63,765 nt of DNA from an uncultured bacterium (GTDB lineage: Bacteria > Zixibacteria > MSB-5A5 > UBA10806): positions 1 through 63,765 of the forward strand of contig CBEUCH010000018.1 of NCBI GenBank assembly GCA_965541585.1, written 5' to 3'. The notes under the pieces were generated by a model that worked only from the letters and a program-made list of their open reading frames with translations, searched no databases and was not told the origin of the DNA. Shown here piece by piece: positions 4,914 through 46,773 of this stretch (position 1 is its first letter; every line of letters starts with the position of its first letter). Both the position numbers and the translations under genes were made by a program.

Positions 4914-4929
4914 AATTTTCGATATAGTC

Positions 4930-5107: not shown

Positions 5108-5120
5108 CTAAGACAGATCA

Positions 5121-5234: not shown

Positions 5235-5256
5235 TACAAACCTCCTTCTGTATTAT

Positions 5257-6786: not shown

Positions 6787-6802
6787 CAGCGGCAGAATCC
6801 AT

Positions 6803-17086: not shown

Positions 17087-17132
17087 TTCTTATTCCAAAC
17101 ATTACTTGATATCCCAAAACGGAACCTCAAGA

Positions 17133-23260: not shown

Positions 23261-23551
23261 ATGAGACAACAGAAAAGACGACAGATTGCAATTGACGACA
23301 TCAAACTTGCTGCCTATCTGCATGCAAAACAGATTCCTATAGAGAGAGTCCAGCGATCTGGCAGATATGGCTGTTTCTATTTCGACGAAAAGAAGGCCCG
23401 GGCTGAAGTGGACAGATATGTGCTTGGCGAAGCCCTCGTTGAGCCAAAGGTGTTCTCAGCAGCGATCCGGGAGTTACGATCGCTCGTCGATAGCCTGTCC
23501 GACGAAATCAGCAGAGAGTTTACTGCACAGACAGATGGAAAGGCATCATGA
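23261..23551 (+). CDS. Small protein, DUF5659-like (mobile-element associated)
   Basis: DIKLAAYL...FYF pattern; RBS; ATGA overlap with the primase gene. Confidence 0.65.
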   Translation: MRQQKRRQIAIDDIKLAAYLHAKQIPIERVQRSGRYGCFYFDEKKARAEVDRYVLGEALVEPKVFSAAIRELRSLVDSLSDEISREFTAQTDGKAS

Positions 23552-26002
23552 GTAATTCTGTCAAAAGACTGCCATTGGAGCCCCATCATATTGAAGACTT
23601 ACAGAGATCCGGTCTTTCCTTAAAGACAATCCGAGAAGCGAATGTTCACTCGATTTCAGATGAAGCCGTAGAGAGAATATTGGGATTCAACATCACAAAA
23701 TCAGCGGGCCTGGCTTTCCCATATCTTTTGCCGGAAGGAACCGCATCTGACCCGTTCATTCGCGTCAAAATTGATTTGCCGCCAATAATAAATGGCAAGA
23801 CGGCACGATACCTAAGCCCTAAAGGATCGGGGAATCGTCTTTATATTCCTCCGGGGATTCAGTCATCACTGAAGGATACATTCAAGGCAATCTATATAAC
23901 TGAGGGCGAAAAGAAAGCGCTTAAGGCCGTACAGGAAGGCCTCTACTGCGTCGCCCTATCTGGAGTATGGTGTTGGAGAGAAAAGGACCACTCGGGGGAA
24001 AGTCATCCCATAGGAGATCTCGACTTGCTTGAGTGGAATGATAGGCACGTTTTCATCGTCTTTGATTCAGATGCCATCCAAAAACCATCGGTATTGAAAG
24101 CGGAAAAGGCATTAGCGGAAGAACTCTTTTCAAGAGGCGCCGTCGTTAGAGCTATTAGGCTACCCGGTGGGAACCATGAGAAAGTGGGATTGGACGATTT
24201 TCTGACGGAAAACTCGGTCGGTGATCTGCTCCAGCTACTTCAAATTGATCCCTTAGATCAGAAAAAGAAGAAAACGTCACGGTCTGGTGAAACTCAAAAT
24301 AAAAAGCTGATTGATTATGGATCGCTACTATTCCTTTTTCATGATCAACACAAAGAGGCCTTTGCCTTTATTGACGGCAATTCCGTCCCTCTGAGTGCCA
24401 AGAGAGCTAAACGCTGGTTAACACGATGCTTTTATGAAGACGAAGGAAAAGCTCCAAACACTGATACGCTCAACCAGGCAATACTGGCATTAGAGGCAAA
24501 GGCACTTTTCGATGGCCCGGAAATAACGCTTAATAACCGTGTAGCCTCCCACGAAGGAGCTTTCTGGCATGATTTAGGCAACGGGCAGGCAATTAAGACA
24601 GTTCCAGGAAAATGGGAAATTGCAGAATCCCCGGTTCTATTTAGAAGATATTCCCATCAGCAAATTCAAGTAACGCCGTCGCCCGGTGGTGATCCTTTTG
24701 CTGTATTTAAGTTCTTAAACGTCAGGGGTGACCAAGAGCTGCTGGTGCTGGCCTGCTTAATCTCATACTTTATTCCTGATATCCCCCACCCGATCTTCCA
24801 TCCCCATGGTCCGCACGGGTCCGGGAAAACCTCTTCCTGCGTATTAATAAAAAGACTTTGTGATCCGTCGACTATTGAAACTTTAATATCACCCAAAAAC
24901 CCTACCCAACTGATACAGCTACTGGCCCACCATCATGTTTGCCTTTTCGACAACATGAGTAATTTACCCGACTGGATGTCTGATATCTTATGTCAGGCGT
25001 GCACCGGCGGAGGGTTCAGCAAAAGACAACTGTACACCGACGACGATGACATCATTTACCAGATCAAAAGGTGCGTAGGGCTTAACGGAATAAACTTGTT
25101 AACCATCAAATCTGATATTCTGGATCGAAGTATTCTGCTTCATCTCGAAAGGATCGATAGCCGGACACGGCTGGAAGAAAGCGATATTTGGAGATCATTT
25201 GATGAGGCCAAGCCAAAGATACTTGGCGGTATTTTCGATGCTCTGTCAAGGGCTATGGCGATATACCCAACCGTCAATTTCCCCTGTCTCCCCCGGATGG
25301 CGGACTTTGCCAGATGGGGGGGCAGCTATCGCCGAGGCGCTCGGTTTCAGCGGAGAGGAGTTTCTCCGAGCATATCAGTGCAACGTTGACAGGCAAAACG
25401 ATGAGGCCATTCAAAGCAATACGCTGGCTCAGGCGGTCCTCACCCTAATGTCAGAACGAGAATCCTGGGAAGGTACTGTCAAGAAAGCCCACAACAGGCT
25501 CCGGGAAATCGCCGATCCAGATAGGAAAGACCCTACTTTTCCCAGAAGCAGCCGGACCTTGCGCAAGCATCTGGAGCGGATCAAGGCAAATCTGCAGGAT
25601 TACAGCATCACATACACCATCGGCGAGCGGACCAGGGACGGATATCCGATCAGTTTCCGTAAAGATGATAATTTTGGTTCACTTGCTTCACAGCCGCTGG
25701 AAGACAAAGAGTTAACTAGTGAACCAAGTGTGAACGAAAGTGAAGCAAACGGAATATCACCATTATTTGATTCACCACATAACCCGTTGAAAGACAATAT
25801 CTGTGAACTTGGTGAACCAGATGCATCAAATTTCAAAGCCTTACGGATTGGCTCCCCAACCTCACCAACGAATCTGAAAGATTGGCCGGAAGAATTGCGA
25901 GAAGAGTTCGAGGAGCGAGCGGCCATCATGGAATTTGACGGCGGATTAAGCCGAGACGAGGCCGAAATGGCAGCTCTCCTATTGGCTGGAGAGCCAACCT
26001 GA
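23548..26002 (+). pseudogene. DUF3854/Toprim-like primase fused to a P-loop helicase-like domain, split by a frameshift in a G7 run at 25316-25322
   Basis: YLSPKG, ITEGEKKA, FDSD, GLDDFL; GPHGSGKT, FDN. LPRMADFARWG continues as AAIAEALG in the other frame. C-terminal FEERAAIMEFDGGLSR..AE motif. Confidence 0.8.
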
Positions 26003-26064
26003 GAGGTTGTTTGACGGACAAAATGAGACACAAAAAAAAGAATATTAATATGAGGGGGAAAACA

Positions 26065-26286
26065 ATGACTGACAGACCCATTACAACCATGGAAAAAAAC
26101 TCGCAGGAGGAGATCCGGTTCTCCCTGCAGGAATACCGGGGCACTGATTTGATCGACATCAGGGTATACTACGATCCCGGTTCCGGCAAACGGAAACCGA
26201 CCAGGAAGGGCATCTCGGTTCCGGTTGATCGATTTGATGAATTCATGGAATGCCTTAAGAACGTTAAGAAAACCGTCTCTACATAG
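26065..26286 (+). CDS. PC4/p15-family single-stranded DNA-binding protein
   Basis: KNSQEEIRFSLQEYRG..LIDIRVYY...PTRKGIS; GAGGGGG RBS before the ATG at 26065. Confidence 0.85.
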   Translation: MTDRPITTMEKNSQEEIRFSLQEYRGTDLIDIRVYYDPGSGKRKPTRKGISVPVDRFDEFMECLKNVKKTVST

Positions 26287-26421
26287 CATGATTAGCAGAG
26301 AAAATTCAGGCAAGAACGGTCACATAGGAAATGGGAATTTCCTGAAATACGAGACCGCTGATACGAAAAATGGATCAAAAGAGAGTAGGAATTCATAGGC
26401 TATGGAGATTATCACAGAAGG

Positions 26422-26754
26422 ATGATGAGAGATAAGCAGAATATCGAGATTGTCGAATTGCGACCTTGCTCGCTGGTGGGAGCGGCGGCGTTCCTGCGAA
26501 GGATTTACATCATTGAGGGTATAATGACTAATGATCTGTCGTTGAAGCTCTTCAACCGGGCTACAGGCGAATACGATATAGCGCGACCCTTGACCGATGA
26601 AGAGCGGTTACAGCGGCGTCTCGAAAAAGCCAAGACCAGTTATAAGCAAAAGCGGATTGCCCGATCGGAACGAGCTAGAAAAGAGGCTCGCAGGAAGCGG
26701 GAATGGCGGAAACGGAAGAACGTCCCGGACTCCCCCATTTTGAGGGAAAATTGA
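26422..26754 (+). CDS. Hypothetical basic protein
   Basis: 110-aa ORF co-oriented with the replication module, Arg/Lys-rich C-terminus; start uncertain. Confidence 0.45.
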   Translation: MMRDKQNIEIVELRPCSLVGAAAFLRRIYIIEGIMTNDLSLKLFNRATGEYDIARPLTDEERLQRRLEKAKTSYKQKRIARSERARKEARRKREWRKRKNVPDSPILREN

Positions 26755-26761
26755 TATTATG

Positions 26762-26774
26762 TATCAACGAGTTA
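26762..26774 (+). promoter_or_regulatory. IHF-consensus site upstream of the excisionase
   Basis: TATCAACGAGTTA matches WATCAANNNNTTR exactly. Confidence 0.5.
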
Positions 26775-26893
26775 CAGCGGACGTTTCGAGGGGGTATGTG
26801 GTTTGACATGAAAAAATCGGCTGAAAATGTTAACCGATTATATTTCAAGAAGTTAATAATTCGGGTGAAAATACAGGAATGAGCCTCTGATCG

Positions 26894-27094
26894 ATGCAGA
26901 AACTACTGACCGTTGAAGAGATCGCCGACTACCTGCAGGTCAAGCCGTCTACCATCTACCAGTGGACGCATCAGGGGTTCATTCCGCATGTAAAGCTGGG
27001 GAATCGGGTGAGGTTCAGGCTGAGCCAGGTGGACAGGTGGATTGAGAGGAGAGAGAATAATGGGAGGACATTAAAAAGGTTGCAGATATTATGA
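26894..27094 (+). CDS. Excisionase-family helix-turn-helix protein
   Basis: LLTVEEIADYLQVKPSTIYQW...IPHVKLG..VRF. Confidence 0.88.
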   Translation: MQKLLTVEEIADYLQVKPSTIYQWTHQGFIPHVKLGNRVRFRLSQVDRWIERRENNGRTLKRLQIL

Positions 27095-27405
27095 TGGCAG
27101 GAATCAACATGTGAGCTGTGTCACCCTGCAACAGCTTCACGTCTTTGTTAGATTTCGAGGATTTAAAGTCACCGAGAATATGACCGAAAACTGTAATGAA
27201 GAAAACTAAATAACGGACGAAGAATGCCTTGTCGTGTAAGACATGGGCTTGCAAGAGTGAGGCGCAATCAAGTCGCTTTTTTGAGCGATCTTGGCTGCGC
27301 CTTTTTGTTTTGAGGTAACATGCGCTTTAAGCGAGACCAGCAATGAAACAAAGAAACCAGGAGAGAATAACCGGTCCAGAGTGACCAGAGTAAAGGAGGA
27401 AGGCC

Positions 27406-28326
27406 ATGACGCCGGAAGTAACTACAGATCAGAGACCTACGGAGGCAGCGGGGCAGAAGCCATACGATGCCCAGATCCTAATCAAGGAACTATGCTCCCA
27501 CCTTCGAATGACCCGGGAGACCAACAGGAGCACGTGGATAGACAGGATCATCGAGGGCAACCTGCTCAAGGCCATGAACAAAGAGGAAATCACGGAAGAA
27601 ACCTCTAACATCTACGACAGCTACATTGCGGTATTGGAAACAGGCAAAGAGGAGGACCTTACCGCCTACGCCCGGGGCCTCTCGGAACGCATTATACCTC
27701 GCGGGGTATCAACCGGCGAGGTCATAGGAATTGTTCTCCTGCTGCGCGACATTCTCTCGCGCTCACTCAACGACAAGTATCGAGGGGACATGACCTACCT
27801 TAACAACGTGATGGACATATACGAGCCAGCCGCGAACCGGATCGCCACCATCGTGTCCGCCTCCTTCGTGGAGGAGCGCGAGCGGTCGCTCAAGGAACAG
27901 CAGGAGGCTATCCGGGAACTGTCGACGCCCGTTTTCGCCGTATGGCAGCAACTTCTGGTATTGCCTATAATTGGAACAATCGACACGGTCCGGGCCAAGC
28001 AGCTGACCGAGAATCTGCTGGCTGGCATCCGTCGCCAGCGGGCGAAGGTGGCGATAATGGACATTACGGCAGTACCGTCCGTGGATTCCAAGATTGCCAA
28101 CCATATCCTTCAGGCAATTGACGCCGCACGTATGCTCGGCTGTGACGTGATTCTGACCGGCGTTTCAGAGGTGATTTCGCAGACGATGGTACAACTGGGC
28201 CTCGATCTATCGCGCGTCAAGGCAGTGCTTGACCTCCAAAGCGGAATAGAGCAAGGTATCACCGCGCTGGGGTTGGAGATTAGGTCATTAAGCGCTCAGA
28301 AGGCAGTGGACATGCCCAAGGAGTAA
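27406..28326 (+). CDS. rsbR: Stressosome sensor RsbR (helical N-terminal domain + STAS)
   Basis: QQEAIRELSTPV, PIIGTIDTVRA, DITAVPSVDS; AAGGAGG RBS. Confidence 0.9.
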   Translation: MTPEVTTDQRPTEAAGQKPYDAQILIKELCSHLRMTRETNRSTWIDRIIEGNLLKAMNKEEITEETSNIYDSYIAVLETGKEEDLTAYARGLSERIIPRGVSTGEVIGIVLLLRDILSRSLNDKYRGDMTYLNNVMDIYEPAANRIATIVSASFVEERERSLKEQQEAIRELSTPVFAVWQQLLVLPIIGTIDTVRAKQLTENLLAGIRRQRAKVAIMDITAVPSVDSKIANHILQAIDAARMLGCDVILTGVSEVISQTMVQLGLDLSRVKAVLDLQSGIEQGITALGLEIRSLSAQKAVDMPKE

Positions 28327-28330
28327 TTCC

Positions 28331-28693
28331 ATGCTGTCCCAGGTTCCGATCTTAAAGATTGAAGACTACCTTCTGGCAACGGTTCAAGCCACTCTTTCGG
28401 ATGAGGATATCGTTAATTTCGGGCAGAAACTGCTTCACGCCGTGGGTCGCCAACGGATGAGAGCGGTAATTATTGACTTAAGCGCCCTGGACGTGATCGA
28501 TTCCTTCGCCACCCGCCAGTTTCGCAACATGGCCAACGCCACGCGGCTACGGGGGGCGCGCACTATAATGGTTGGCATCCAGCCGGACGTGGCCTACGGT
28601 CTCGTCCAACTGGGCATGCGGCTAACGGGGATTGAGACGGCTCTTGACCTTGAGGACGCCCTGGCGGTACTCAAAAAAGGAAGGCGCCGGTGA
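28331..28693 (+). CDS. rsbS: Stressosome STAS scaffold RsbS
   Basis: VPILK, IDLSALDVIDSF (phospho-Ser), GIQPDVA, TALDLE. Confidence 0.9.
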   Translation: MLSQVPILKIEDYLLATVQATLSDEDIVNFGQKLLHAVGRQRMRAVIIDLSALDVIDSFATRQFRNMANATRLRGARTIMVGIQPDVAYGLVQLGMRLTGIETALDLEDALAVLKKGRRR

Positions 28694-29085
28694 ATACCGC
28701 CTCAATTCCCATCAAGAACGAGAACGACTTGGTATCCGCCCGCCTTCAGGGGCGGGATATGGCAAAGGAAATAGGCTTTGGCGTTTTTGATCAAACGCTG
28801 ATTTCGACCGCCATTTCTGAACTGGCGCGAAACATCCTATCGTACGCTGAAACCGGTGAGATGCTGCTTGAGATGACTTCAGACGGGTCCCGCCGGGGCA
28901 TTCGGCTGCGTGCCATCGACAAAGGACCGGGTATAGAGGACCTGGAGGCGGCTCAACATGAGGGCTATTCTACCGGCGGGGGGTTGGGGATGGGGCTATC
29001 AGGCGTCCAACGGCTAATGGATGAATTCAGTATCGAGTCCGAGCCAGCCAGGGGCACAACCGTGGAGGTACTCAAATGGCTATGA
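28690..29085 (+). CDS. rsbT: Stressosome Ser/Thr kinase RsbT
   Basis: TAISELARNI, DKGPGI, GYSTGGGLGMGL, RLMDEF, KWL. Confidence 0.92.
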   Translation: MNTASIPIKNENDLVSARLQGRDMAKEIGFGVFDQTLISTAISELARNILSYAETGEMLLEMTSDGSRRGIRLRAIDKGPGIEDLEAAQHEGYSTGGGLGMGLSGVQRLMDEFSIESEPARGTTVEVLKWL

Positions 29086-29699
29086 AGAGGATGGCGACTG
29101 CAACGAAACTCAATTTCGGAACCAAGACGGTTTCCTCGCCAGGAGAGGAGATGGCGGCGGATTTATGGGTCGTGAAGCAATTTGGAGAGCAGTGGCTGAT
29201 GGCCGTCATAGATGGCCTGGGTCACGGCCCAGAGGCCCTTAAAGCTGCTGAGACTGCCAGGGGAGTCATTGAAATGTTTGAGGGGCAGCCGCATCCGGCG
29301 ACCATTCTGACGGAGTGCAGCGCAGCGATGACGAATACCCGCGGGGCAGTGATCGGACTGTGTCTGGTGGACTATGGCCGCGACCGTCTAACATGGTCTG
29401 GAGTGGGAAACATTGAAGGCAAGGTAGTTTGGCGCGAAACCGAGGGGCAGCTTCAGCAGGTATCGCTGATTTCTACTCCCGGTATTGTGGGGTGCGATCT
29501 TCCCAAACTCAACCAACAGGTCTGTAAACTGAAACCTGCCAGCCTGATAATCATGTTTACCGACGGACTCGACAGCAAATGGGTATTTCCCGAAAACCGC
29601 TGGCTTTTCGAAATGGAGCCGGAGGCGCTGGCGGCACACCTGATGAAGAGTCACAGCAAAAAGACAGACGATAGCCTTGTAGCTGTAGTGAGGTACTGA
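29076..29699 (+). CDS. rsbX: RsbX-like PP2C/SpoIIE phosphatase
   Basis: IDGLGHGPEA, TRGAV, GVGNIE, GIVG, FTDGL, DDSL. Confidence 0.85.
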   Translation: MAMKRMATATKLNFGTKTVSSPGEEMAADLWVVKQFGEQWLMAVIDGLGHGPEALKAAETARGVIEMFEGQPHPATILTECSAAMTNTRGAVIGLCLVDYGRDRLTWSGVGNIEGKVVWRETEGQLQQVSLISTPGIVGCDLPKLNQQVCKLKPASLIIMFTDGLDSKWVFPENRWLFEMEPEALAAHLMKSHSKKTDDSLVAVVRY

Positions 29700-29703
29700 C
29701 GAA

Positions 29704-30171
29704 ATGGGAGATAACACGCGGGGCGGAAAACAGAGCAATCAACTGCAGGTCAGGATAGCCAGCCATGCTGAAGTCATTAATCTGACCGGCAAGATAAAGG
29801 CATTGTTGGATGGGGGCTGTTCGCCCGAAGAGGAGGCTGAGATCGCCACCGCTGTTATAGAGCTGGCTTCCAACGCCTTGCAGTATGCGGGTTCGGGAGA
29901 TTTGAATCTCCAGATCGAGGGCGACATTTTAACTGTCAGTTGTGAGGACAACGGTCCCGGCATCCTGACGTGGGATTTAAGGAAGTACGAGGAGTTGGAG
30001 CTGAGCCACAACCTTGGCGAGGGCCTCGGTGTGGTGCATCGGCTCATGGATATGGTGGAAATTGAAACGAAAGCAGGAAGGGGAACAAGGATCATCGCCA
30101 GGCGCCGCCTGGGGGTTCGCACTGGTCCTCCTCCACTGCATGATGACGAAACGCGGAAGATCGGGGGTTAA
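29704..30171 (+). CDS. Second RsbT/anti-sigma-like HATPase protein
   Basis: TAVIELASNALQYAG, EDNGPGI, LGEGL, RLMD, GRGT. Confidence 0.8.
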   Translation: MGDNTRGGKQSNQLQVRIASHAEVINLTGKIKALLDGGCSPEEEAEIATAVIELASNALQYAGSGDLNLQIEGDILTVSCEDNGPGILTWDLRKYEELELSHNLGEGLGVVHRLMDMVEIETKAGRGTRIIARRRLGVRTGPPPLHDDETRKIGG

Positions 30172-30175
30172 CGCT

Positions 30176-31285
30176 TTGACACAGCATTTAGTGAGAGAAG
30201 CCAAGATCGATTTTGAGAACGTACTCCTCAAAATGCCCGAGGCCGCGCTGATTGAGAATGAGAGGCATGAAATTGTCTGGGCTAACGATGCTGCCCGGCA
30301 ACTCTTGAAAGTGAAGGCCGGAGAACCATCGGTAATACCGGGCGAAATTACGGAGGAATTGGCAAAAGGGAATAAGGATTTTATTATCAAAAAGCTCCGA
30401 ATTAAAGGACTCACGTTAGAATGCAAGTCGTCCATTCAAAAGGGCGGGAAATCTGAAACTAATATCTTTTCAATACTATCCGACGTATCGGAGCTGGAAA
30501 ACATCGCCGCCCACTGGTCCAAAATAGCCGAGGAAAGCGAGCGGAAAGCGGTGGAACTGGCACGGTCAAACGAGGAACTGGAGCAGTTTGCGTATGTAGC
30601 CTCGCATGACCTGCAGGAACCGTTACGAAAGATAAAGAGTTTTACAGAGCTTTTTGCCCAGCGCTTCAAGGGGAAAATCGATGAGAAAGCGGATAAGTAT
30701 ATTTATTACATCATAGATAGTACGGCCCGTATGCAGGGACTAATCAATGATTTACTATCATATTCACGGGTGAGCAGTCAAGGTCAACCCTTTAAGATGA
30801 CAGACTGCGAGAAGGCACTCGATTATGCAATAAGTAATTACCAGATGGCAATAAAAGAGAGCGACGCGGAGATAACGCACGATAAGCTCCCCTCAATTGT
30901 GGCTGATGAATCACAGTTGATACAAGTGTTCCAAAACCTGATTGGCAACGCTATAAAATTCAGCGGAGAAAAATCTCCGCGCATTCATATTTCGGCGAAG
31001 GATGAACATAGCGAATGGATTTTTTCGATCCAAGACAATGGTATAGGGATTGAAGCAAAGTATGCGGAACGCATTTTCATAATTTTTCAGCGATTACACA
31101 GCCGGGAGGAAAGTCCCGGCAGCGGAATCGGCCTGTCTATATGCAGGAAGATCGCAGAACGTCATGGGGGCCGTATCTGGGTTGAATCAACCCCCGGGGA
31201 GGGTTCAACGTTTTATTTCACTATACCAAAAAGCGAAAATGTGGCCAAAAAAGATAACAAAACATTAGTCAAGGCAAGGAGTTAA
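30176..31285 (+). CDS. PAS-containing sensor histidine kinase (Cph1-type transmitter)
   Basis: [42 protein letters not shown]; start uncertain (30140 or 30176). Confidence 0.88.
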
Positions 31286-31289
31286 GACG

Positions 31290-31796
31290 ATGGATGACGA
31301 GAAATTCGGAAGCCCCATTGAGGTGTTGCTCGTCGAGGATGACCCGGGCGACGTTGAGCTGATGACCGAAGTAATGAGTAAAGCAAGGTTAAAAATCAAG
31401 ATGAACGCGGTGAGCGATGGCGTTAAAGCATTGGCGTATCTGCGCAGAGAGGGCGAATACGCTGATTCAACCAGGCCCGACCTGATATTGCTCGATCTTA
31501 ACATGCCCGGAAAAGATGGCCGGGAAGTGCTTCGTGAAATCAAGAATGAGGAAAGCTTGAGGTCCATACCCGTAGTAATCCTGACCACATCCGACGCAGA
31601 TGAGGATGTTGTTAAAACATATACGCTTGGCGCAAGCTGCTATGTTACCAAGCCAGTGGGGTTGGAACAGTTTGCCAAGGTGGTGGAATCTCTCGAAGAT
31701 TTCTGGTTTACGGTTGTAAAGTTCCCCCCGCGGAAAGACAGCGAACTTGAAAAGGACAAAGATCATGAGAATATCCATTCTTCTGGTAGAGGATGA
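31290..31796 (+). CDS. Single-domain response regulator (Rcp1-like)
   Basis: [37 protein letters not shown]. Confidence 0.9.
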
Positions 31797-32619
31797 ACCG
31801 GGAGACGTTGAGCTTATTAGAGAAATGCTCGGGGCAAATCGGGACATTTCTTACAAATTGACTATATCTGATCGTTGCTCCAGGGCGGTAGAAGTCCTGA
31901 ACAAGGAGAGGATAGATATTGTCTTGATGGATCTGGGCCTGCCCGACAGCCAGGGCATGGATACCCTTTTACGTGTTCTCGATGGGAAACCTGACGTTCC
32001 CATTATTGTAATGACGGGAAACGATAATGAAGCACAAGCGGCAAAAGCCGTTCAAATGGGCGCCCAGGACTATCTGATTAAAGGCCAAATCGATCAGAAG
32101 GTGCTTCAAAGATCGATTCGCTACGGTTTAGAACGTTATCGTTTATTAAAAGAGCTGGAGCTCGCGCGATTGCGGAAAGAGCAAGAACGGGAGATTAGAT
32201 CGCTTGATGAGTATTCGGATGGCTTGGCGACATCTGTCACGGCCCGTTCATTTGGAGTGGGCTTACTAAGCGAGACTATACCGGATTCATTCGAGGAACT
32301 TGTTTCAATATATGGTGATCTCCTTGATCTATCTCTCGAACAACGGACATTCAAGGTGGATAATACGATTTCCAAGAGGCTCTACTCCCTGGCGGAAAAG
32401 ATTGGCTTTCTGAAGGCCGGCCCTCGGGATATCGTGGAGATTCACAGCCTTGCCCTAAAAAGAAGGACAACGGAGGTCCCTCCGCAAAGGGCACAGGCAT
32501 TTATGGAAGAGGGAAGACTGATGGTGCTCGAGCTTATGGGCTATTTGGTTTCTGTTTACCGCGCCAATCAAAGCAGAATACCTGCTCAAATGGCTCTGAC
32601 TGAGAATAAGAGAAACTGA
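31765..32619 (+). CDS. Receiver domain fused to a KaiA-like C-terminal domain (KaiA3-type)
   Basis: N-terminal REC (VED, MDLGLPD, AQDYLIK). C-terminal [10 protein letters not shown]...[18 protein letters not shown] aligns by eye with the KaiA C-terminal helix (DYRL.LID.LAHL.E.YR). Directly upstream of kaiB-kaiC. Confidence 0.72.
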
Positions 32620-32638
32620 ATATCCGAGGAGGAGACTA

Positions 32639-32947
32639 ATGAATAAGCAAAAAATGACATTGTACATCACGGGGCTTACGCCCAAATCGGAACGGGCTAT
32701 CGCCAATCTACGGAAGGTCTGCGATGAGGAGCTTGGCGATCAATATGAAATTGAAGTTGTTGATATTCTCGAGCATCCTCAACTGGCGGAGGACCAGAAA
32801 ATCCTGGCGACGCCAACCCTGATTAAGGTTTTACCTCCACCCCTTCGCCGAATCATAGGAGATCTTTCCAATTTAGAAAAGGTCTTAATTGGACTTGACA
32901 TTCAGGTCCGCATACAAAAGACGGAGGAATCCAATGTGTCCGAATAA
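32639..32947 (+). CDS. kaiB: Circadian clock protein KaiB
   Basis: LYITGLTPKS, PQLAEDQKILATPTLIKVLPPPLRRIIGDLSN.EKVLIGLD. Confidence 0.96.
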   Translation: MNKQKMTLYITGLTPKSERAIANLRKVCDEELGDQYEIEVVDILEHPQLAEDQKILATPTLIKVLPPPLRRIIGDLSNLEKVLIGLDIQVRIQKTEESNVSE

Positions 32948-34472
32948 AGATATTCTCGATTTTGAGATTAAGAAACTGGAAACTCGAATTCCAGGCTTCG
33001 ACCTTATCAGCAACGGCGGACTTCCGGAGGGCCGCACAACTCTGGTTTCCGGAACAGCCGGAGGTGGAAAGACCGTGTTCGCGGTGCAGTTTCTTGCAGA
33101 GGGAATCCAAAAAGCCGATGAGAACGGCGTCTTTGTGACGTTCGAAGAGCCGCCCGAGGATATTCGCAGGAATATGCTCGGCCTGGGGTGGGACATTGGG
33201 AAATGGGAAGACGAGGGCAGATGGGCGTTCGTAGATGCCTCACCGCAAGAGGGGTTAGAAATAATCGAGACCGGGAACTACGATTTAGGAGCCCTTTTGG
33301 CTCGAATCGAACATGGCGTCAAGAAGGTTGACGCGAAACGCCTGTCAATGGACTCTCTCGGCGCCATTTTCTCCCAGTTTACAAACAGCGGAATTGTGCG
33401 GATCGAGCTATTCCGGATAGCAATAGCTTTGAAAAAAATGGGTATCACCGCGATCTTGACAGCTGAGCGGACAGAAGAATACGGTGAAATCTCACGTCAT
33501 GGCGTTGAGGAATTCGTGACAGATAATGTGATTATAATGCGGAATGTACTGGAGGAAGAGAAGCGTCGCCGAACCATAGAGATACTCAAATTCAGAGGAA
33601 CCAGTCATCAAAAAGGAGAATGGCCCTTTACAATAGTCCCCAATGAAGGGGTGGTTGTGCTTCCCCTTTCCGCCATGGAGCTCACCCAGAGATCATCCGA
33701 TATCAGGGTCTCTACGGGAAATGATGTTCTCGATGAAATGACCGGCGGCGGTTTTTTCCGAGATTCGATAATACTTGCGTCCGGTGCCACCGGCACAGGC
33801 AAGACGCTTCTGGTTACGGAATTCCTGAACGACGGCTGCCTTAAAGGCGCTAAAACTCTCGTGTTTGCCTTTGAGGAATCTCGGGCGCAGCTCTTGAGAA
33901 ATGCCATTGGCTGGGGTATTGATTTCCAGAAGTGGGAAGAATCCGAATTATTGAAAATTGTCTGCGAGTACCCTGAGAGCCGCGGGCTGGAAGACCATTT
34001 ACTTATTATGAAAAGGGAAATCGAAAGTTTTCAGCCGACGCGTATTGCGGTAGATAGCCTCTCAGCGCTTGAAAGAGGGTCAACTACGAAGAGCTTCCGC
34101 GAATTTGTGATCGGGCTGACTTCCTTCGTCAAGGAAAAAGAAACGGCCGGCCTGCTCACAGCTACGACAACCTCATTGATGGGTGGAACATCGGTAACCG
34201 AGGGCCATATCTCAACCATCACCGACTCGATCCTGCTGCTCAGATATGTCGAATTGTTGGGAGAGATGCGAAGGGGCATAACAGTTTTGAAAATGCGTGG
34301 TTCAATGCATGATAAGAACATCCGGGAGTTTTCTATAGACGGAGAAGGGATGCATATCGGCAGACCGTTCCGGGACGTTTCAGGTATATTGTCCGGCCAC
34401 ATTGTCCATGTGAGCCCGGGAGAAATAGAACGCACGGGAAGCATGTTTAAAGAAATGGAAAAAGTGAGATAG
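32934..34472 (+). CDS. kaiC: Circadian clock protein KaiC (double-domain)
   Basis: Walker A GTAGGGKT and GATGTGKT, FEE pairs, KFR/KMR fingers, phosphosite region HISTITDSILLLRYVE; GGAGG RBS before the ATG at 32934. Confidence 0.96.
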   Translation: MCPNKDILDFEIKKLETRIPGFDLISNGGLPEGRTTLVSGTAGGGKTVFAVQFLAEGIQKADENGVFVTFEEPPEDIRRNMLGLGWDIGKWEDEGRWAFVDASPQEGLEIIETGNYDLGALLARIEHGVKKVDAKRLSMDSLGAIFSQFTNSGIVRIELFRIAIALKKMGITAILTAERTEEYGEISRHGVEEFVTDNVIIMRNVLEEEKRRRTIEILKFRGTSHQKGEWPFTIVPNEGVVVLPLSAMELTQRSSDIRVSTGNDVLDEMTGGGFFRDSIILASGATGTGKTLLVTEFLNDGCLKGAKTLVFAFEESRAQLLRNAIGWGIDFQKWEESELLKIVCEYPESRGLEDHLLIMKREIESFQPTRIAVDSLSALERGSTTKSFREFVIGLTSFVKEKETAGLLTATTTSLMGGTSVTEGHISTITDSILLLRYVELLGEMRRGITVLKMRGSMHDKNIREFSIDGEGMHIGRPFRDVSGILSGHIVHVSPGEIERTGSMFKEMEKVR

Positions 34473-34552
34473 GTGAATGTGTCTGAGCGGCTGAACAGCA
34501 TACGAGACAGGAAATGCCGTTTCTCGGCAATTGAAACTCGGGCGGTACAGGT

Positions 34553-36874
34553 ATGAGCGACAAGAATTTAAGAATTTTGCTTATCGAGGACGATCAGGGC
34601 GACGCCCAATTGATTCGGGAGATGCTTGATAATATTCAGGCGTCTCGTCCAGCCGACTTTTCCTATGAATTAGTTCACGTCGGCCGGCTTGCAGATGCCC
34701 TTGATAAAATACGCGAAAGGAAATTTGACCTGATCTTACTTGACCTTTCGTTGCCCGATTCTAATGGTCTTCAATCGCTTCTCAAAATCCGAATTCATGG
34801 TGCAGGAATCCCGGTAATCATATTAGCCGGTTTGGACGATGAATTAGTAGCAATTCAGGCTATCAGAGGCGGCGCCCAGGATTACCTGGTTAAGGGACAT
34901 ATGAATAGTCGCCTCTTAGGGCGGTATCTCAGATTTGCTGTTGAACGGCAACAATTATTGTGCAAGTTGGATGGAAGCGAATCACGTCTGCATAAGATCA
35001 TTCAGAAAAGCGCAGATGGTATCATAGTGGTGGACAGGGACGGAGTTGTATGCTTTGTCAATCCGGCAGCTGAAAATCTGTTTGCGCGTCAAAAGAATGG
35101 AATCCTGGGCGATCCCTTCGGCTTCCCTGTCGTGCCAGGCGAAAATGCAGAGCTCGATATCCTGAGAAAAGACGGGAAAACCGCCACGGTGGAAATGCGG
35201 GTAGTCAAAATCGAATGGCAGGAACAGCCTGCGTACCTGGCATCCTTACGGGATATTACGGAACGCAAGAAGTCAGAACAGGAAATCGCTAATCTGCGTC
35301 AAGAATTGTCGGAGGAAAACCAAAGGCTCATGGAATCGAATGAGAGGCTAAAGGAGCTTGATAATCTAAAGACTGATTTTCTAATGACAGCTTCTCACGA
35401 GCTTCGAACCCCGTTGACCATAATTCAACAATATATTGCAATAGTCAGAGACGGCATGGCCGGACCCATCAATAAGGAACAGGAGGAGTGTCTTGAATCC
35501 TCATTAAAGAATTGCAATCGCCTGGGCAATCTCCTGAATGATATCCTTGATTTTGAGCGTATACAATCCGGCAGACAGCGTTTAAAGCGGAGAAGCACGG
35601 ATATCTCAGCTCTATTGAAATGCTGCTATCACGATTTCCTTCCGCGCTGCAAGGGCAAGCATCAACAACTGGAATTAGTCGTTCCGGAAGGGTTGCCGAA
35701 CATTCTGAGCGACGAAGAGAAAATCCAGCAGATTTTAGTGAACCTACTGGGTAACGCTCAGAAGTTCACCCAGGAAAACGGCCAGATTATCATAAAAGCC
35801 CATCATGACAATAAAAAGGTAATTGTATCCATCCAAGACAATGGCCCCGGTATCGGCAATGAGGATCAGAAAAGTATCTTTGACAAATTCACTCAAATTG
35901 AACGAAAAGCTGGTCCTGGAGCTAAAGGCACAGGTTTGGGGCTGGCAATATCTAAAAAAATAATAGAAATGCATGACGGAATATTAACGGTAGATAGCAC
36001 TCCAGGCGAGGGATGCACATTTTCATTTGCTCTTCCGATTTATGACGAGAAGAAGGAATTGTATAGCTTCATTAGTGATCGTGCGAAAATAGCAGAAACG
36101 ATCGGAATGAATTTGTTTTTGATTCTGCTGAAGATTGGCCGAGATGGTGTTTCCTCCCAGAAATCCCCAGGCGAAAATGAGGTAGGGACTCTGAAAGGGA
36201 TTGAAGAAACTACTGATCGAATTTTAAGACGAAATGATGACGAAATTCTTTTGGTTCCATCTGAAGGTCTGCTGGCAATTATGATGGAAGCCGATGATAA
36301 CGGAGCCCGGGCTTTTGTGAATCGTTTGGGAAGTTCGCTTGTTGATAGTCTAGAATTGGATGATCCGATTTTCTATTCAGCTGTTAAAGTTGGAACGGAG
36401 ATTGCCGCCGAGGAACTACTCGATTCTGCCATTAACAAATTGAAACGTATGGAGGGATTGGCCGTCCGAAAACGTGTACTCATAGTGGATGACGAGGAGG
36501 ATATTTTACCTGTAATTACCGGATTTCTGGAGTCGACAGATCTCGATCTGAAGATCGAATCAACTACCAGTGGTTACGATGCTTGTATCAAATTTGGAAT
36601 CTTTGCCCCGGATCTTGTTATACTCGATATCGTAATGAGGGGTTTTGACGGTATTGAGGTTTTGAAAAAGATTAAGGAAAACCCTCACAAGAACCATGCG
36701 AAAATATTGGTCATGTCAGGACATTCTCAATTTATGGATGATGCGATGCATCTAGGCGCCGACGATTTCCTTTTAAAAACACAGATGGCAAATGAGTTAG
36801 CTCGAAAAGCCATCTACTTGCTGGGGGAAGAGAAAAAAGGGGAAAGTCGTTTGGCAGAAAAGGTGAATCTTTAA
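34553..36874 (+). CDS. Hybrid histidine kinase REC-PAS-HisKA-HATPase-(degenerate GGDEF-like)-REC
   Basis: N- and C-terminal receivers, ASHELRTPL, NLLGNAQKF, DNGPGI, GTGLGL. Confidence 0.88.
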   Translation: MSDKNLRILLIEDDQGDAQLIREMLDNIQASRPADFSYELVHVGRLADALDKIRERKFDLILLDLSLPDSNGLQSLLKIRIHGAGIPVIILAGLDDELVAIQAIRGGAQDYLVKGHMNSRLLGRYLRFAVERQQLLCKLDGSESRLHKIIQKSADGIIVVDRDGVVCFVNPAAENLFARQKNGILGDPFGFPVVPGENAELDILRKDGKTATVEMRVVKIEWQEQPAYLASLRDITERKKSEQEIANLRQELSEENQRLMESNERLKELDNLKTDFLMTASHELRTPLTIIQQYIAIVRDGMAGPINKEQEECLESSLKNCNRLGNLLNDILDFERIQSGRQRLKRRSTDISALLKCCYHDFLPRCKGKHQQLELVVPEGLPNILSDEEKIQQILVNLLGNAQKFTQENGQIIIKAHHDNKKVIVSIQDNGPGIGNEDQKSIFDKFTQIERKAGPGAKGTGLGLAISKKIIEMHDGILTVDSTPGEGCTFSFALPIYDEKKELYSFISDRAKIAETIGMNLFLILLKIGRDGVSSQKSPGENEVGTLKGIEETTDRILRRNDDEILLVPSEGLLAIMMEADDNGARAFVNRLGSSLVDSLELDDPIFYSAVKVGTEIAAEELLDSAINKLKRMEGLAVRKRVLIVDDEEDILPVITGFLESTDLDLKIESTTSGYDACIKFGIFAPDLVILDIVMRGFDGIEVLKKIKENPHKNHAKILVMSGHSQFMDDAMHLGADDFLLKTQMANELARKAIYLLGEEKKGESRLAEKVNL

Positions 36875-36885
36875 AATTTAGATTA

Positions 36886-37275
36886 GTGGAGGATTATATG
36901 TTCAAAGGAAAAATCTTAGTTGTCGATGATGAACCGGATATTGTCAAGATAGTCGGTATTCGACTAAAAGCGAGCGGCTACGAAGTCGTCACGGCAATGG
37001 ATGGTCTGCAGGCCACGAATATTGCCATCATTGAGCAACCGGACCTCATTGTACTGGATATAAACATGCCTGCGGGCGATGGCCACACAGTCGCAAAGCG
37101 GTTAAAAAACTCCTCCAAAACCTGTTCAGTCCCAATCATTTTCTTAACCGCTAGCACGAATCCTGAAGATTACAAGAAAGCTATTGACTCAGGTATAGTC
37201 AAATACATTACGAAGCCATTCGATGCCAAGGAATTGCTAGCCGCTGTGGATGATCTCGTAACCCGAGGAAAATAG
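36886..37275 (+). CDS. Single-domain response regulator
   Basis: ILVVDDE, PDLIVLDINMP.GDG, FLTA, YITKPF. Confidence 0.9.
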   Translation: MEDYMFKGKILVVDDEPDIVKIVGIRLKASGYEVVTAMDGLQATNIAIIEQPDLIVLDINMPAGDGHTVAKRLKNSSKTCSVPIIFLTASTNPEDYKKAIDSGIVKYITKPFDAKELLAAVDDLVTRGK

Positions 37276-37315
37276 TCAGGTTGAGATGAATTGGAATCGT
37301 CAGTTAGGGCAACCT

Positions 37316-38422
37316 TTATTTGTAATCAAATTCCAGCTTCTCCACCGCATCCGCAAGGTGATCCGCCGCGAGATGAGAATAGATCATGGTGGTCTGGATA
37401 TCTGAATGCCCCATCAGTTTCTGAACGGTTGGAAGATCGACACCGCTCATTACAAGATGGCTGGCGTAGGTATGGCGCAATGAATGGAGCTTGGTCAAAC
37501 CCTCGATTCTGGCCTTCTGCGCTACCCTGATAAGCTGCCTGCGGAGCTTTTCTTTGATTTTGCCACCGTCTGCATGCGGGAAGACGAAGCTGGCTTTTAG
37601 ACCTTTCTCATTCTTCACTTTGAGATTTTTCAGGAGTTCATAGGTCCCCTGGTTCATCGGTATCTCCCTCTCCCCCGTCTTGGGATGCCAGAAATCTTTA
37701 CGTCGGATCTTGATCTTACGGCGTTTGAAGTCAATATCTGCCCATTCGAGATTCTCCAACTCAGCTTTCCGCATACCTGTATTCAGGAATGTGTAGAAGA
37801 TATTCCTCAAATCCGGATGGGAGTTCTCCAGCAACCGCCTGCATTCTTCCTTGGTCAAGAATCTCGGCTGTTTGGAATCGTTGACCTTGAGCCGGACCAC
37901 ACCCTTTGTGGGATTCTCCTTCATGAAGCCCCATTTGATAGCCATGTTGAAGATGGTTCGCAGCGTCCCGATCTCGAAGTTGATGGTATTCCCCCTGGCT
38001 CCCTTTCGCGTGTAGTCAGAGATATCCTCGTCAGATTCAACTTGAGAACCGTTCGGATTGACCCACTCACCTTTGCGGAATACCTTATAGCCGTCTATCT
38101 CCTTTGCCCCGATCTGGGATAGGAACAGAATCTCCGGCTGGAGGGTTAAGAACTTCTTGAAGTGATCTAAAACAGCCCTGTAGCGATTGTAGGTGGCCTT
38201 CGAATGGTTGGCATCGGAATACTCCAGGAACCGCTCCAGAAACATTTGTATGGAAGCATCGTTCTTGGCGAAGCCGAACTCATCCCTGGCGATTTTGACT
38301 TCAGCATCCCTTAAAGCAAGCTCGGCAATCTTCTTTGAGGTGCCTACGCGCTTACGGACTCTTCGCCCACCGGCCCGTACATCGATATACCAGATATTGC
38401 CTCTTTTGTAGGTTGATCCCAT
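37316..38422 (-). CDS. int: Tyrosine integrase of island A
   Basis: N-terminal arm-binding-like YKRGNIWY; TGMRKAE, LHSLRHTYAS, GHSDIQTTMIY; next to the tRNA-Ser core. Confidence 0.93.
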   Translation of the reverse strand: MGSTYKRGNIWYIDVRAGGRRVRKRVGTSKKIAELALRDAEVKIARDEFGFAKNDASIQMFLERFLEYSDANHSKATYNRYRAVLDHFKKFLTLQPEILFLSQIGAKEIDGYKVFRKGEWVNPNGSQVESDEDISDYTRKGARGNTINFEIGTLRTIFNMAIKWGFMKENPTKGVVRLKVNDSKQPRFLTKEECRRLLENSHPDLRNIFYTFLNTGMRKAELENLEWADIDFKRRKIKIRRKDFWHPKTGEREIPMNQGTYELLKNLKVKNEKGLKASFVFPHADGGKIKEKLRRQLIRVAQKARIEGLTKLHSLRHTYASHLVMSGVDLPTVQKLMGHSDIQTTMIYSHLAADHLADAVEKLEFDYK

Positions 38423-38476
38423 GCTAACCCCCGTATTCTGATGGTCACAATATGGCCACACGGCCTGTCCAGCCTC

Positions 38477-38504
38477 AGTATACTATGTCGGAATCTTTTG
38501 TCAA
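38477..38504 (-). promoter_or_regulatory. Putative sigma-70 promoter of the integrase
   Basis: TTGACA-N16-TATACT on the minus strand. Confidence 0.6.
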
Positions 38505-38533
38505 GTATAAAGTTACAGAATCTCAAAAAAAGA

Positions 38534-38560
38534 TGGCGGAGAGACTGGGATTCGAACCCA
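38534..38560 (-). tRNA. tRNA-Ser 3' fragment (att core), not a complete tRNA
   Basis: Minus strand tgggttcgaatcccagtctctccgcca: T arm, acceptor 3' strand TCTCTCC, discriminator G and CCA; no 5' half upstream. Confidence 0.85.
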
Positions 38561-38846
38561 GAAATGCCCTTTCACACCAATAACTTACAGCAGTTGCTAC
38601 AAATATGCTACAAGAATCGGCTTGATCCATTAGTGGATTTTCACCATCCGCTTACCTTCTGCCAACTCGGCATTTGATTGCACGGGAGGGCAAGTCCGGA
38701 GAACACTGCAAATAGGTCATTTGCTGTTGCCATATTGTTGGCGCGGTTGCCCGGTTCACCGGGATATTGGCTCCCTGTACCCAATGCACCCAGCCGTATA
38801 AGCCGGGCCGATCTTAAGAAGCAGGTCAGATATAAATAAAAAAATG

Positions 38847-38875
38847 TTGACAGAGTTTTTGGGATTCTATACTTT
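38847..38875 (+). promoter_or_regulatory. Putative sigma-70 promoter of the Rrf2/NXR cluster
   Basis: TTGACA-N17-TACTTT. Confidence 0.5.
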
Positions 38876-38893
38876 AACATCCAGAAATCCGAG

Positions 38894-39337: not shown

Positions 39338-39432
39338 AACATTTTCTTTGGAGACCGGAAAGAATGAAGAGTTATAGGATACCACTTTCATGCTCCCGGT
39401 TTGAATATCACTCTTAGATGACGAGGACTACT

Positions 39433-40041: not shown

Positions 40042-40098
40042 AGGTCTTTTATGATTGCTTCATTGGCCGGGGAGAAAATGTCGAGGGAATAAAAGGGG

Positions 40099-41091: not shown

Positions 41092-41118
41092 GAACCAGAG
41101 ATAAGGAGATGATAAAAA

Positions 41119-44565: not shown

Positions 44566-44575
44566 GAGGAGAGAA

Positions 44576-45487: not shown

Positions 45488-45518
45488 AATAAAGCCCTGA
45501 AAACACGGAGGAAAAAGA

Positions 45519-46766: not shown

Positions 46767-46773
46767 GATTAAG

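Follow-up and report, generated by a model that had tools for sequence, protein, structure and literature searches.

A stressosome gene module linked to a KaiA3-KaiB-KaiC cassette in a twelve-gene cluster on an integrase-bounded island of an uncultured Zixibacteria genome

The window analysed here is the whole of contig CBEUCH010000018.1 (63,765 bp; contig C18 of a 3.52-Mb, 98% complete metagenome-assembled genome (MAG), assembly GCA_965541585.1, of an uncultured bacterium of the Zixibacteria). Between 27406 and 37275 it carries twelve genes, all on the + strand, in which a minimal stressosome module is followed by a KaiA3-KaiB-KaiC timer cassette. The order is RsbR, RsbS, RsbT, an RsbX-type PP2C phosphatase, a second small RsbT/RsbW-like protein termed T2, a PAS histidine kinase, an Rcp1-like receiver (REC), a REC-KaiA3 protein, KaiB, KaiC, a hybrid kinase and a receiver (Table 1). 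Each of the two modules is known, and their rare but recurrent linkage appears new. Comparison with other genomes points to a single pathway that would take in both the stressosome half and the KaiA3BC half. We lean, by a modest degree, to the reading that the cluster is one horizontally acquired operon in which the minimal stressosome would control a KaiA3-KaiB-KaiC phosphorylation timer. Confidence in this reading stays moderate because a kinase with an RsbU_N domain, encoded on another contig of the same genome (C26), may receive the RsbT signal.

The cluster is real and correctly described. An earlier note on this DNA, made from the sequence alone, had reported twelve co-oriented genes with overlaps or short gaps, and the open reading frame (ORF) listing and Pfam agree on this; by coordinates the junctions are overlaps of 4–32 nt or else gaps of 4, 4, 4, 19, 80 and 11 nt. 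All the gene identities given there, including the KaiA3-like call, are borne out by Pfam, by relatives in the PDB, by synteny and by fold. A consensus scan of 26000–39000 found no convincing + strand terminator in any intergenic gap. The same scan counted 23 terminator-like sites against 13.5 expected, and 23 promoter-like sites against 15.2 expected with a consensus that may not cover this organism's promoter type. For the stretch 27406–37275, two DNA-type sediment sequencing runs are listed, with small shares of 0.08 and 0.05.

The first four genes make up the stressosome side. The RsbR-like protein consists of an N-terminal helical sensor domain and a C-terminal STAS domain, and its closest solved relatives are the stressosome RsbR chains 9o3z, 9o4r and 7b0u (E 2e-32, residues 33–291 aligned). 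The RsbS-like protein is closest to Moorella MtS 2vy9 (E 2.5e-23) and then to RsbS 6jhk and 6qcm; the serine of its D-S-F motif, presumably the phosphorylation site, aligns with the MtS counterpart. The RsbT-like kinase is the sole strong RsbT of the genome, in which a search otherwise gives T2 and one weak match. Thirty relatives, of which 2 share the host's genus, 11 its family, 10 its order and 7 its class, yield only weak RsbT-like matches, at 43–68 bits versus 246 for the window gene. Its closer counterparts are the RsbT of locus L012, 77% identical (79% by tblastn), and that of L018, 47% identical (48% by tblastn). The RsbX-like phosphatase occupies the equivalent position in L012 and L086 and is fused to a T2-like domain in L018 and L109. 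The R-S-T-X order with overlapping genes is that of a stressosome module, namely RsbR, RsbS and RsbT with a PP2C. Inside the cluster Pfam detects no sigma factor, no RsbV-type additional STAS protein, no RsbU and no RsbU_N domain. The claim that RsbU, RsbV, RsbW and sigma-B are missing stands for the cluster; as for RsbU, the genome does encode the RsbU_N kinase on C26.

On the Kai side, KaiC is the only true KaiC in the host genome. It passes the NCBIfam equivalogs NF006799 (718 bits, above 408) and TIGR02655 (663, above 546), and its best match in the PDB is 8zn5_B (693 bits), with 609 bits to S. elongatus 1u9i and 321 to Rhodobacter 8dba. Aligned to 8zn5_B and to T. elongatus KaiC, it has both Walker A motifs, both EE pairs and the H-I-S-T-I-T-D phosphosite motif, and its C-terminus is of normal length and cyanobacterial type, without the KaiC2 extension. 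KaiB reaches 110.3 bits with NF006798 (cut-off 110) and 103.9 with TIGR02654, below the cut-off of 145.3; its closest solved relative is cyanobacterial 2qke (E 6.6e-29). The lone receiver upstream of KaiA3 is closest to RcpA 1k68 (E 4.9e-40) and Rcp1 1i3c (E 1.6e-37). The hybrid kinase that follows KaiC is a candidate output kinase, or a second input kinase.

The KaiA3-type protein joins a receiver, through a long helix, to a C-terminal part of about 125 aa that has no Pfam assignment. It has 2301 homologues at E ≤ 0.001, the best of them full-length, 45–55% identical and annotated only as response regulators. Over residues 3–266 it is 37–54% identical to genes in the KaiA3 position, those of Synechocystis salina, Microcystis and Roseiflexus lying at 37–47%. 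Genome contigs were scanned with a 51-sequence alignment, and the neighbours at the best 80 of 238 relatives were scored by tblastn with the window proteins. These KaiA3 loci include Microcystis, Synechocystis salina, Roseiflexus and Chloroflexaceae, which belong to the groups credited with kaiA3 in PMC11372060, and also two Zixibacteria MAGs. KaiB lies directly downstream of KaiA3 in 77 of the 80, and KaiC follows in 57, the misses being mostly Microcystis/Synechocystis-type loci or short contigs. The receiver retains the acidic pair, Asp56, Thr84 and Lys106; in 51 family members E9 is invariant, and D10, D56 and K106 are each present in at least 90%.

When the whole protein was compared with the PDB by sequence, profile and Foldseek, only receiver domains were matched, and phmmer with the single C-domain sequence gave nothing meaningful. 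The C-domain was then cut out as an alignment of 46 sequences (A2). The A2 profile matched 12 PDB sequences at E ≤ 10, seven of which are KaiA (best KaiA E 0.032). In Foldseek, the top six matches of the AlphaFold2 (AF2) model of the C-domain (predicted local distance difference test score 89.2) are all KaiA C-domains (probability 1.00, E 0.045–0.12, template modelling score 0.57–0.62 on the query), with RsbU N-domain structures lower in the list (probability 0.57–0.77). The best VIA-align matches are KaiA 1r5q (Z 10.8, root-mean-square deviation 2.5 Å, 90 of 91 residues) and 5c5e (Z 10.5), at a level under about 13 at which helical bundles can have an arrangement in common. Pfam RsbU_N matches weakly in 3 of the 51 family members (best E 0.0082). 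Taken one at a time, the KaiA matches are weak and the scores modest, and further points weigh against the call. The top match of the A2 profile is an unrelated SHERP chain (E 0.017), no Foldseek match falls under E 0.001, and VIA-align also returns RsbR N-domains, at Z 10.0 and 8.9. Pfam KaiA (PF07688) is not among the 25 of 46 families listed for the 51 members at E up to 5, where HMMER filters drop weak matches. Taken together, the KaiA3 assignment is sound, as the profile and fold matches of the C-domain combine with synteny; the KaiA-like call on this REC protein draws on its KaiA3 homology, the adjacency of KaiB and the C-domain fold. Proteins of 250–350 aa in which PAS precedes a KaiA3-type C-domain form a family of their own (L086:10558-11397, P0122-P0144, P0157, P0159, P0180, P0181, P0184), one relative of which has PAS and CBS. 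The existence of this family suggests that the KaiA-like domain comes with interchangeable input domains: REC, PAS, or PAS with CBS.

Much of the Kai side recurs as a unit. Of the 71 loci with 2 kb or more ahead of KaiA3, 28 have a homologue of the kinase core as the immediate upstream neighbour; of the 75 with 600 nt or more, 18 have an Rcp1-like receiver in that place; and of the 65 with 4.5 kb or more on the downstream side, 29 carry a REC-PAS-kinase after KaiC. Because homologues of the kinase, the receiver and the hybrid kinase flank many KaiA3 loci, the histidine kinase (HK)-REC-KaiA3-KaiB-KaiC-hybrid HK core is a widespread cassette that recurs outside cyanobacteria, with the stressosome/T2 front end being rare.

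Where the front end is present, the arrangement can be followed closely. L012, from an uncultured bacterium, has the full order RsbR-S-T-X-T2-(PAS)(HK)-REC-KaiA3-KaiB-KaiC-HK-REC, its RsbR being 73% identical by tblastn. L018, a 604-kb contig titled Candidatus Helarchaeota, carries by Pfam two RsbR, RsbS, RsbT, a T2-PP2C fusion, an HK, a PAS-HK, a REC, KaiA3, KaiB-KaiC twice, a REC-PAS-HK and further kinases. The module order is common to L018 and the window. L018 differs in its T2-PP2C fusion, its duplicated KaiB-KaiC, its RsbR sensors of NMT1-HAMP-PAS and GAF-PAS build and its less similar RsbT, whereas the window version is bacterial and sits on an integrase island. The tandem of two KaiB-KaiC pairs after one KaiA3 spans L018:11037-14724, and its two KaiCs fall in different parts of the KaiC tree. 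In L086, RsbR-S-T-X-T2 (58–78% identity) is followed by a fusion protein, KaiB, KaiC and a REC-HK. The fusion protein, 279 aa and directly after T2, has no Pfam match and lacks HisKA, HATPase and receiver. Its N-half is 58% identical to residues 19–140 of the window kinase, that is, the weak-PAS N-domain, and its C-half is 55% identical to residues 138–266 of the KaiA3-type protein, with an hhalign probability of 100% against A2. Full-length relatives are P0122 (60%) and P0123 (45%), and many PAS + KaiA-like proteins of 290–313 aa cover 87–97% of it. An assembly artefact was considered for this fusion and ruled out, as the protein is recorded from two sources and full-length relatives exist.

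L131 (449-12538) is built in another way. It comprises an integrase, a distant 582-aa KaiC (38%), two KaiB, a PAS-HisKA_3 hybrid kinase, RsbR-S-T-X, an RsbU_N-HisKA_3 kinase and a NarL-type regulator. Here the Kai genes and the hybrid kinase lie upstream of RsbR-S-T-X, and the stressosome has its own RsbU_N-kinase/NarL output. L131 is a separate, differently built Kai-stressosome association. The expectation that the rsb and kai halves would co-occur elsewhere with synteny is borne out by L012, L018 and L086. Since closely similar gene orders recur in these three, the arrangement in the window is no chance neighbourhood. The linkage is rare but recurrent, and its recurrence, together with the domain fusions, supports a functional rather than an accidental connection.

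T2 and the PAS kinase stand where the two modules meet. T2 is 56–57% identical among the window, L012 and L086, 22–34% identical to other RsbT/T2-like proteins, and has its own conserved C-terminal tail. Among 1.84 billion cluster representatives, a single one of a 50%-identity cluster was found at E 4.7e-62, the next match being at 4e-18, and a word-based search added two members of the subgroup, P0219 (88%) and P0220 (58%). Eleven of the nearest relatives outside the subgroup were scanned. Eight have the T2-like domain N-terminal on a HisKA-HATPase_c kinase, two of these with PAS between and one also with PP2C and RsbU_N; the remaining three are two T2-PP2C fusions and one tandem of two such domains. 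N-terminal fusions of an RsbT/W-like HATPase_c_2 to histidine kinases or to PP2C are common (P0223-P0239, P0243, P0246; L109:1844-5150), and the 816-aa P0238 unites HATPase_c_2, PP2C, RsbU_N, PAS and a kinase core in a single chain. The stressosome neighbourhood of L109 has RsbR-S-T, a T2-PP2C fusion and then a T2-HisKA-HATPase-REC-REC protein.

The start of the PAS kinase is uncertain (ATG 30140/30143 or TTG 30176). Its N-domain matches PAS_8 weakly (E 0.003) and has homologues in two loci only, L012 (43%) and L086 (57%), both of which carry the T2 subgroup; in the window and in L086 the stop codon of T2 overlaps the start of the next gene. A complex predicted for T2 and the PAS N-domain scored 0.00 twice, from alignments of three sequences each and with controls not folded, and is no evidence either way. 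T2 as a mere duplicate of RsbT was ruled out on its low identity to RsbT-type proteins, its own tail, and its nearest other relatives, which are kinase N-domains. The second small kinase had first been taken for a spare RsbT; the comparative data instead favour an adaptor role, and T2 is likely an adaptor between the stressosome and the PAS kinase. Since T2-(PAS)-kinase fusions are widespread, T2 and the PAS kinase look like a split form of that architecture.

The following pathway is proposed. RsbR, RsbS and RsbT would form a sensing complex that the PP2C resets, by homology to solved stressosomes. T2 would read the state of this complex, acting as the detached input domain of the PAS kinase, as the fusions and the co-occurrence suggest. 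The PAS kinase, judging from synteny, would phosphorylate the Rcp1-like receiver, Asp56 of the KaiA3 receiver, or both. The state of the receiver would set how far the KaiA-like C-terminal dimer stimulates KaiC autophosphorylation, with KaiB closing the cycle, by homology to KaiA3B3C3 of Synechocystis. The REC-PAS-kinase-REC protein and the final receiver would then pass the state of the timer onward to a target. Because T2 and PAS sit at N-terminal (input) ends, flow from the stressosome side towards KaiA is suggested. The device may free-run, damp or work as an hourglass that the stressosome starts.

The earlier note had made phosphorelay onto the receiver of the KaiA-like protein the route of stressosome input. 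The functional rsb-kai linkage it implied is supported by recurrence and fusions; the relay itself appears to be one solution and not the essence of the link, because the L086 variant skips the whole His-Asp relay. A wider proposal is that Kai cassettes outside cyanobacteria would time events instead of days. In this cluster, in a few other bacteria and in an Asgard archaeon, the stressosome would start or reset a KaiA3BC hourglass by way of T2, a hitherto unrecognised adaptor in which a detached RsbW/RsbT-like GHKL domain couples Ser/Thr partner switching to a histidine kinase or, as in L086, straight to a PAS-KaiA protein; this is speculative and we regard it as rather doubtful. A still bolder step would make KaiA and the RsbU N-domain a single ancient docking module for small GHKL kinases, in which case RsbT or T2 could bind the KaiA-like domain directly.

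Control of the Kai timer by the stressosome has to be set against several observations that speak the other way. The junction is rare: among the 61 loci in which 6 kb or more precede KaiA3, 2 (L012 and L018) have RsbR/S/T/X there, and 78 of the 80 KaiA3 loci have no RsbT nearby. A reciprocal scan of metagenome contigs with an RsbT alignment (best 80 of 290 relatives, only 18 of at least 10 kb) found Kai genes at 2 of 80 RsbT loci (L086 and L131). Most KaiA3BC cassettes appear to lack a stressosome, and most stressosomes to lack Kai. In a quick IQ-TREE tree of KaiC (LG+G4, 60 rows; the short rows L038, L024 and L029 dropped) the stressosome-linked KaiCs do not group together: their 6 rows need 6 changes, which is no better than with shuffled labels. 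They sit at the poorly resolved base of the KaiA3-linked clade, with L131 on a long distant branch, and the tree neither shows nor excludes a single origin with later transfer for the KaiC3-type loci. In L012 the homologue of the PAS kinase lies in two reading frames (L012:4140-5557; PAS part 4314-4625, core 4754-5539), through a frameshift, an assembly error or a truly split gene. The sequencing-run listing contains no RNA run with 27406–37275, and gene order and fusions indicate neighbours in a pathway more firmly than its direction.

The RsbU_N kinase on C26 belongs with these points. The RsbU_N domain is the docking partner of RsbT. This orphan RsbU_N-HisKA-HATPase_c kinase (325 aa; genome G000, C26:20387-22175, L174:6387-8175) is followed by a 265-aa receiver protein and lies in a run of two-component genes, far from the genome's only RsbT; no RsbU_N domain was found in the 30 relatives. 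It may be the real stressosome output, beside the Kai branch or instead of it. In the extreme case there would be no functional link in the cluster at all: the two modules would be cargo of one integrative element, and RsbT would signal only to the C26 kinase. The rarity of the linkage, the island context, the scattered KaiCs of the tree and the fact that the RsbU_N kinase, like the island, is unique to this genome among the 31 searched agree with mere co-transfer. Yet the order recurs in four loci whose RsbT are 47–77% identical and whose record titles name different phyla, the genes overlap or lie 4–80 nt apart, the T2 subgroup and the kinase PAS domain occur only together, and a PAS + KaiA-like fusion directly follows T2 in L086; we hold co-transfer without function to be very unlikely.

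Other explanations accept the link and read it differently. The KaiBC part might be a slow ATPase or phospho-switch in a stress relay, with no period or delay function. KaiB/KaiC homologues with stress-response roles in Legionella pneumophila and Pseudomonas are cited in the introduction of PMC11372060, and no match to the reaction-centre families PF00124 and PF00223 was found in the 98% complete host genome, which upholds the view that the host is probably non-photosynthetic and makes a daily light cue not obvious. Against this, KaiC is of the cyanobacterial KaiC1/KaiC3 kind and not divergent, as the two equivalogs passed and the scores of 609 bits versus 321 indicate; it keeps its S/T phosphosites and a C-terminus of normal length, and the KaiA3-KaiB-KaiC order is that of Synechocystis, which gives phosphorylation rhythms (PMC11372060). 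The slow switch seems unlikely to us. In direct docking, released RsbT or T2 would bind the KaiA-like domain and compete with or enhance KaiC binding, the His-Asp relay running in parallel. KaiA has the same fold as the RsbU N-domain, and RsbT is proposed to bind RsbU at a place that corresponds to where KaiC binds KaiA (PMC11372060). The weak RsbU_N matches and the RsbU N-domains in the Foldseek list are in keeping with docking, as are the lack of an RsbU_N domain in the cluster and the lack of a kinase or receiver between T2 and the KaiA-like protein of L086. However, KaiA matches the C-domain clearly better than RsbU_N does, nearly all KaiA3 loci (78/80) have no RsbT nearby, a genuine RsbU_N kinase is encoded elsewhere in the genome, and the partner of T2 in L086 could equally be the PAS half of the fusion, so that docking appears quite unlikely. 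Least probable, in our estimate, is reverse flow, with the Kai timer gating the stressosome and stress sensitivity varying with the state of the timer. Gene order alone does not give direction, and in L131 the KaiC-KaiB-KaiB-hybrid kinase set stands upstream of RsbR-S-T-X, whose stressosome has its own output. In the fusions, though, the T2-like domain takes the N-terminal (input) position of kinases, PAS stands at the regulatory N-terminus of the KaiA-like protein, in the place of the KaiA3 receiver, and a separate kinase/receiver pair follows KaiC.

The two halves of the cluster have counterparts in known systems. Koebler et al. (Nat Commun 2024, PMC11372060) propose that the KaiA3-KaiB3-KaiC3 proteins of Synechocystis sp. 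PCC 6803 make up an in vitro oscillator, and they report the kaiA3 family from non-cyanobacterial taxa such as Roseiflexus and Chloroflexus as well. The window has in common with this system a protein of about 290 aa, with REC and a KaiA-like C-domain, directly upstream of kaiB and kaiC, and the conserved phospho-acceptor Asp. The window differs from Synechocystis in that a kinase, an Rcp1-like receiver and a complete RsbRSTX module with T2 come before the cassette, that the host genome lacks reaction-centre genes and that the genes lie on an integrated island. On the stressosome side, the Vibrio vulnificus-type locus has rsbR-rsbS-rsbT-rsbX and after it two-component genes termed the "downstream module" (Pane-Farre 2005, cited in PMC10014275). 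A minimal RSTX module without SigB, with co-oriented two-component proteins immediately downstream, is common to both. The Vibrio output is a kinase/regulator pair thought to control cyclic di-GMP (PMC10014275), whereas in the window the two-component step would lead into KaiA3-KaiB-KaiC, and the additional small GHKL protein T2 stands between RsbX and the kinase. In Bacillus subtilis partner switching, RsbT docks on the RsbU N-domain (PMC12143880). RsbR, RsbS, RsbT and RsbX homologues are found in both systems, and the KaiA-like domain belongs to the fold family of the RsbU N-domain (PMC11372060); unlike in B. subtilis, the window cluster has no RsbU, RsbV, RsbW-sigma pair or SigB, and its output is not a PP2C phosphatase. 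The RsbU_N-histidine kinase outputs of L113, L131 and C26 follow the same logic of stressosome to histidine kinase to receiver, whereas the window kinase has a PAS-like N-domain and the separate T2 in place of RsbU_N. Among the papers covered by full-text searches of the literature, none links a stressosome to Kai, and the KaiA3 paper mentions RsbT in a fold comparison (PMC11372060). The impression that no characterised example exists agrees with this search.

The operon and its relatives provide a complete, compact and cloneable candidate chain of sensor complex, adaptor, kinase, receiver-KaiA, KaiB, KaiC and output kinase, together with natural variants, one without the His-Asp relay and others with the adaptor fused to kinase or phosphatase. 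To our knowledge, essentially nothing is established about the input pathways of Kai systems outside cyanobacteria or the kinase for the KaiA3 receiver. The cluster suggests a way in which stress or a chemical cue might set off, or reset, a timer made of proteins in organisms other than cyanobacteria. It makes two questions accessible to test, namely what phases or starts a non-photosynthetic Kai timer and how a stressosome reaches outputs other than RsbU.

Table 1. Features of the window in and around the stressosome-Kai cluster (positions of the whole contig).
Feature	Position	Strand	Evidence
RsbR-like scaffold/sensor, 306 aa	27406..28326	+	Pfam STAS E 9.8e-13, weak RsbRD_N E 0.0067
RsbS-like single STAS protein, 120 aa	28331..28693	+	Pfam STAS E 5.2e-12
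RsbT-like GHKL serine kinase, 131 aa	28690..29085	+	Pfam HATPase_c and HATPase_c_2
RsbX-like PP2C phosphatase, 207 aa	29076..29699	+	Pfam SpoIIE E 1e-11
T2, second RsbT/RsbW-like GHKL protein, 155 aa	29704..30171	+	Pfam HATPase_c_2 E 2.9e-9
Kinase with PAS-like N-domain, HisKA and HATPase_c	~30140..31285	+	Pfam HisKA E 1.4e-11, HATPase_c E 1.4e-29
Rcp1/RcpA-like receiver, 168 aa	31290..31796	+	Pfam Response_reg E 3.8e-22
KaiA3-type protein (REC, long helix, KaiA-like four-helix C-domain), 284 aa	31765..32619	+	Homology, synteny, fold
KaiB, 102 aa	32639..32947	+	Pfam KaiB E 2.9e-30, 104.2 bits (> 27)
KaiC, double RecA-like domain, 512 aa	32934..34472	+	Pfam KaiC E 8.7e-115, two stretches
Hybrid kinase REC-PAS-HisKA-HATPase_c-REC, 773 aa	34553..36874	+	Pfam
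Single-domain receiver, 129 aa	36886..37275	+	Pfam Response_reg E 7.1e-29
Tyrosine recombinase (integrase)	37316..38461	-	Pfam Phage_integrase E 2.1e-33; PHROG 1 integrase E 3.3e-73
25-nt tRNA-Ser(GGA) 3'-end remnant, att-type scar	38537..38561	-	25/25 versus intact genes of relatives G003 and G002
DUF3854/primase-like protein	23548..25389	+	Pfam DUF3854 E 2.6e-17; PHROG 47 DNA primase E 2.7e-5
Small regulator	26011..26286	+	PHROG 4053 transcriptional regulator E 1.6e-6

The cluster lies on what appears to be an integrative island. An integrase gene, convergent with the operon, lies 40 nt beyond its end and is followed by the remnant of a tRNA-Ser(GGA) 3′ end, recognised by its exact match to the last 25 nt of intact tRNA-Ser genes in two relatives. 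On the other side, upstream of the operon, come a DUF3854/primase-like gene and a small regulator, read as island backbone, and further upstream an AAA+ gene and a large methylase/helicase pair. ARAGORN found no intact tRNA in the window, and Rfam at the gathering threshold gave nothing. Weaker remnants lie at 6796–6820 (23/25, beside an integrase fragment at 6208–6663) and at 57589–57608 (20/20), all three in the same orientation, and a 267-nt repeat pairs 6804–7070 with 57592–57847 at 83%. An exact-repeat search for a second att site gave only 12–15-nt matches near 6.8 kb. The remnants and the repeat suggest tandem or serial insertions at one tRNA site. A transporter operon common to a same-genus relative sits between the remnant at 6796–6820 and the cluster.

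None of the 30 relatives yielded a KaiC, and 27.1–37.3 kb has no DNA match in the five closest, while the 1.1 kb immediately upstream of 27.1 kb and the integrase do have DNA matches in that set. The integrase beside the tRNA 3′-end repeat and the absence from relatives point to a tRNA-targeting integrative element, and horizontal acquisition on an integrase-bounded island is well supported by these comparisons. The proposal that the cluster travels on a mobile element is upheld as regards acquisition, on the integrase, the tRNA remnant and the absence in relatives; present mobility and an exact left end are not supported. On these terms the cluster would illustrate such a device travelling between phyla on integrative elements.

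Other genes of the window may be further cargo. A 1079-aa PLD-nuclease/SNF2-helicase protein stands beside a 1363-aa Eco57I-type methylase at 13847–21224 (-), and the region of this pair is probably defence cargo of the same accessory region. It is followed at 21383–23110 by a 575-aa sigma54-type AAA+ protein with no DNA-binding domain listed. On the other side of the cluster, 38894–47517 holds an Rrf2 regulator and a molybdopterin oxidoreductase set of the ethylbenzene-dehydrogenase type (alpha subunit of 1148 aa, EB_dh subunit, 4Fe-4S subunit and delta chaperone). This stretch has no DNA match in the two same-genus relatives; lying between the tRNA-Ser remnants at 38537–38561 and 57589–57608, it may be another island. 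Near the end of the contig, two neighbouring - strand genes encode secreted proteins with FlgD_ig tails and have in common a 586-nt stretch (61687–62270 and 63174–63757) at 81% identity.

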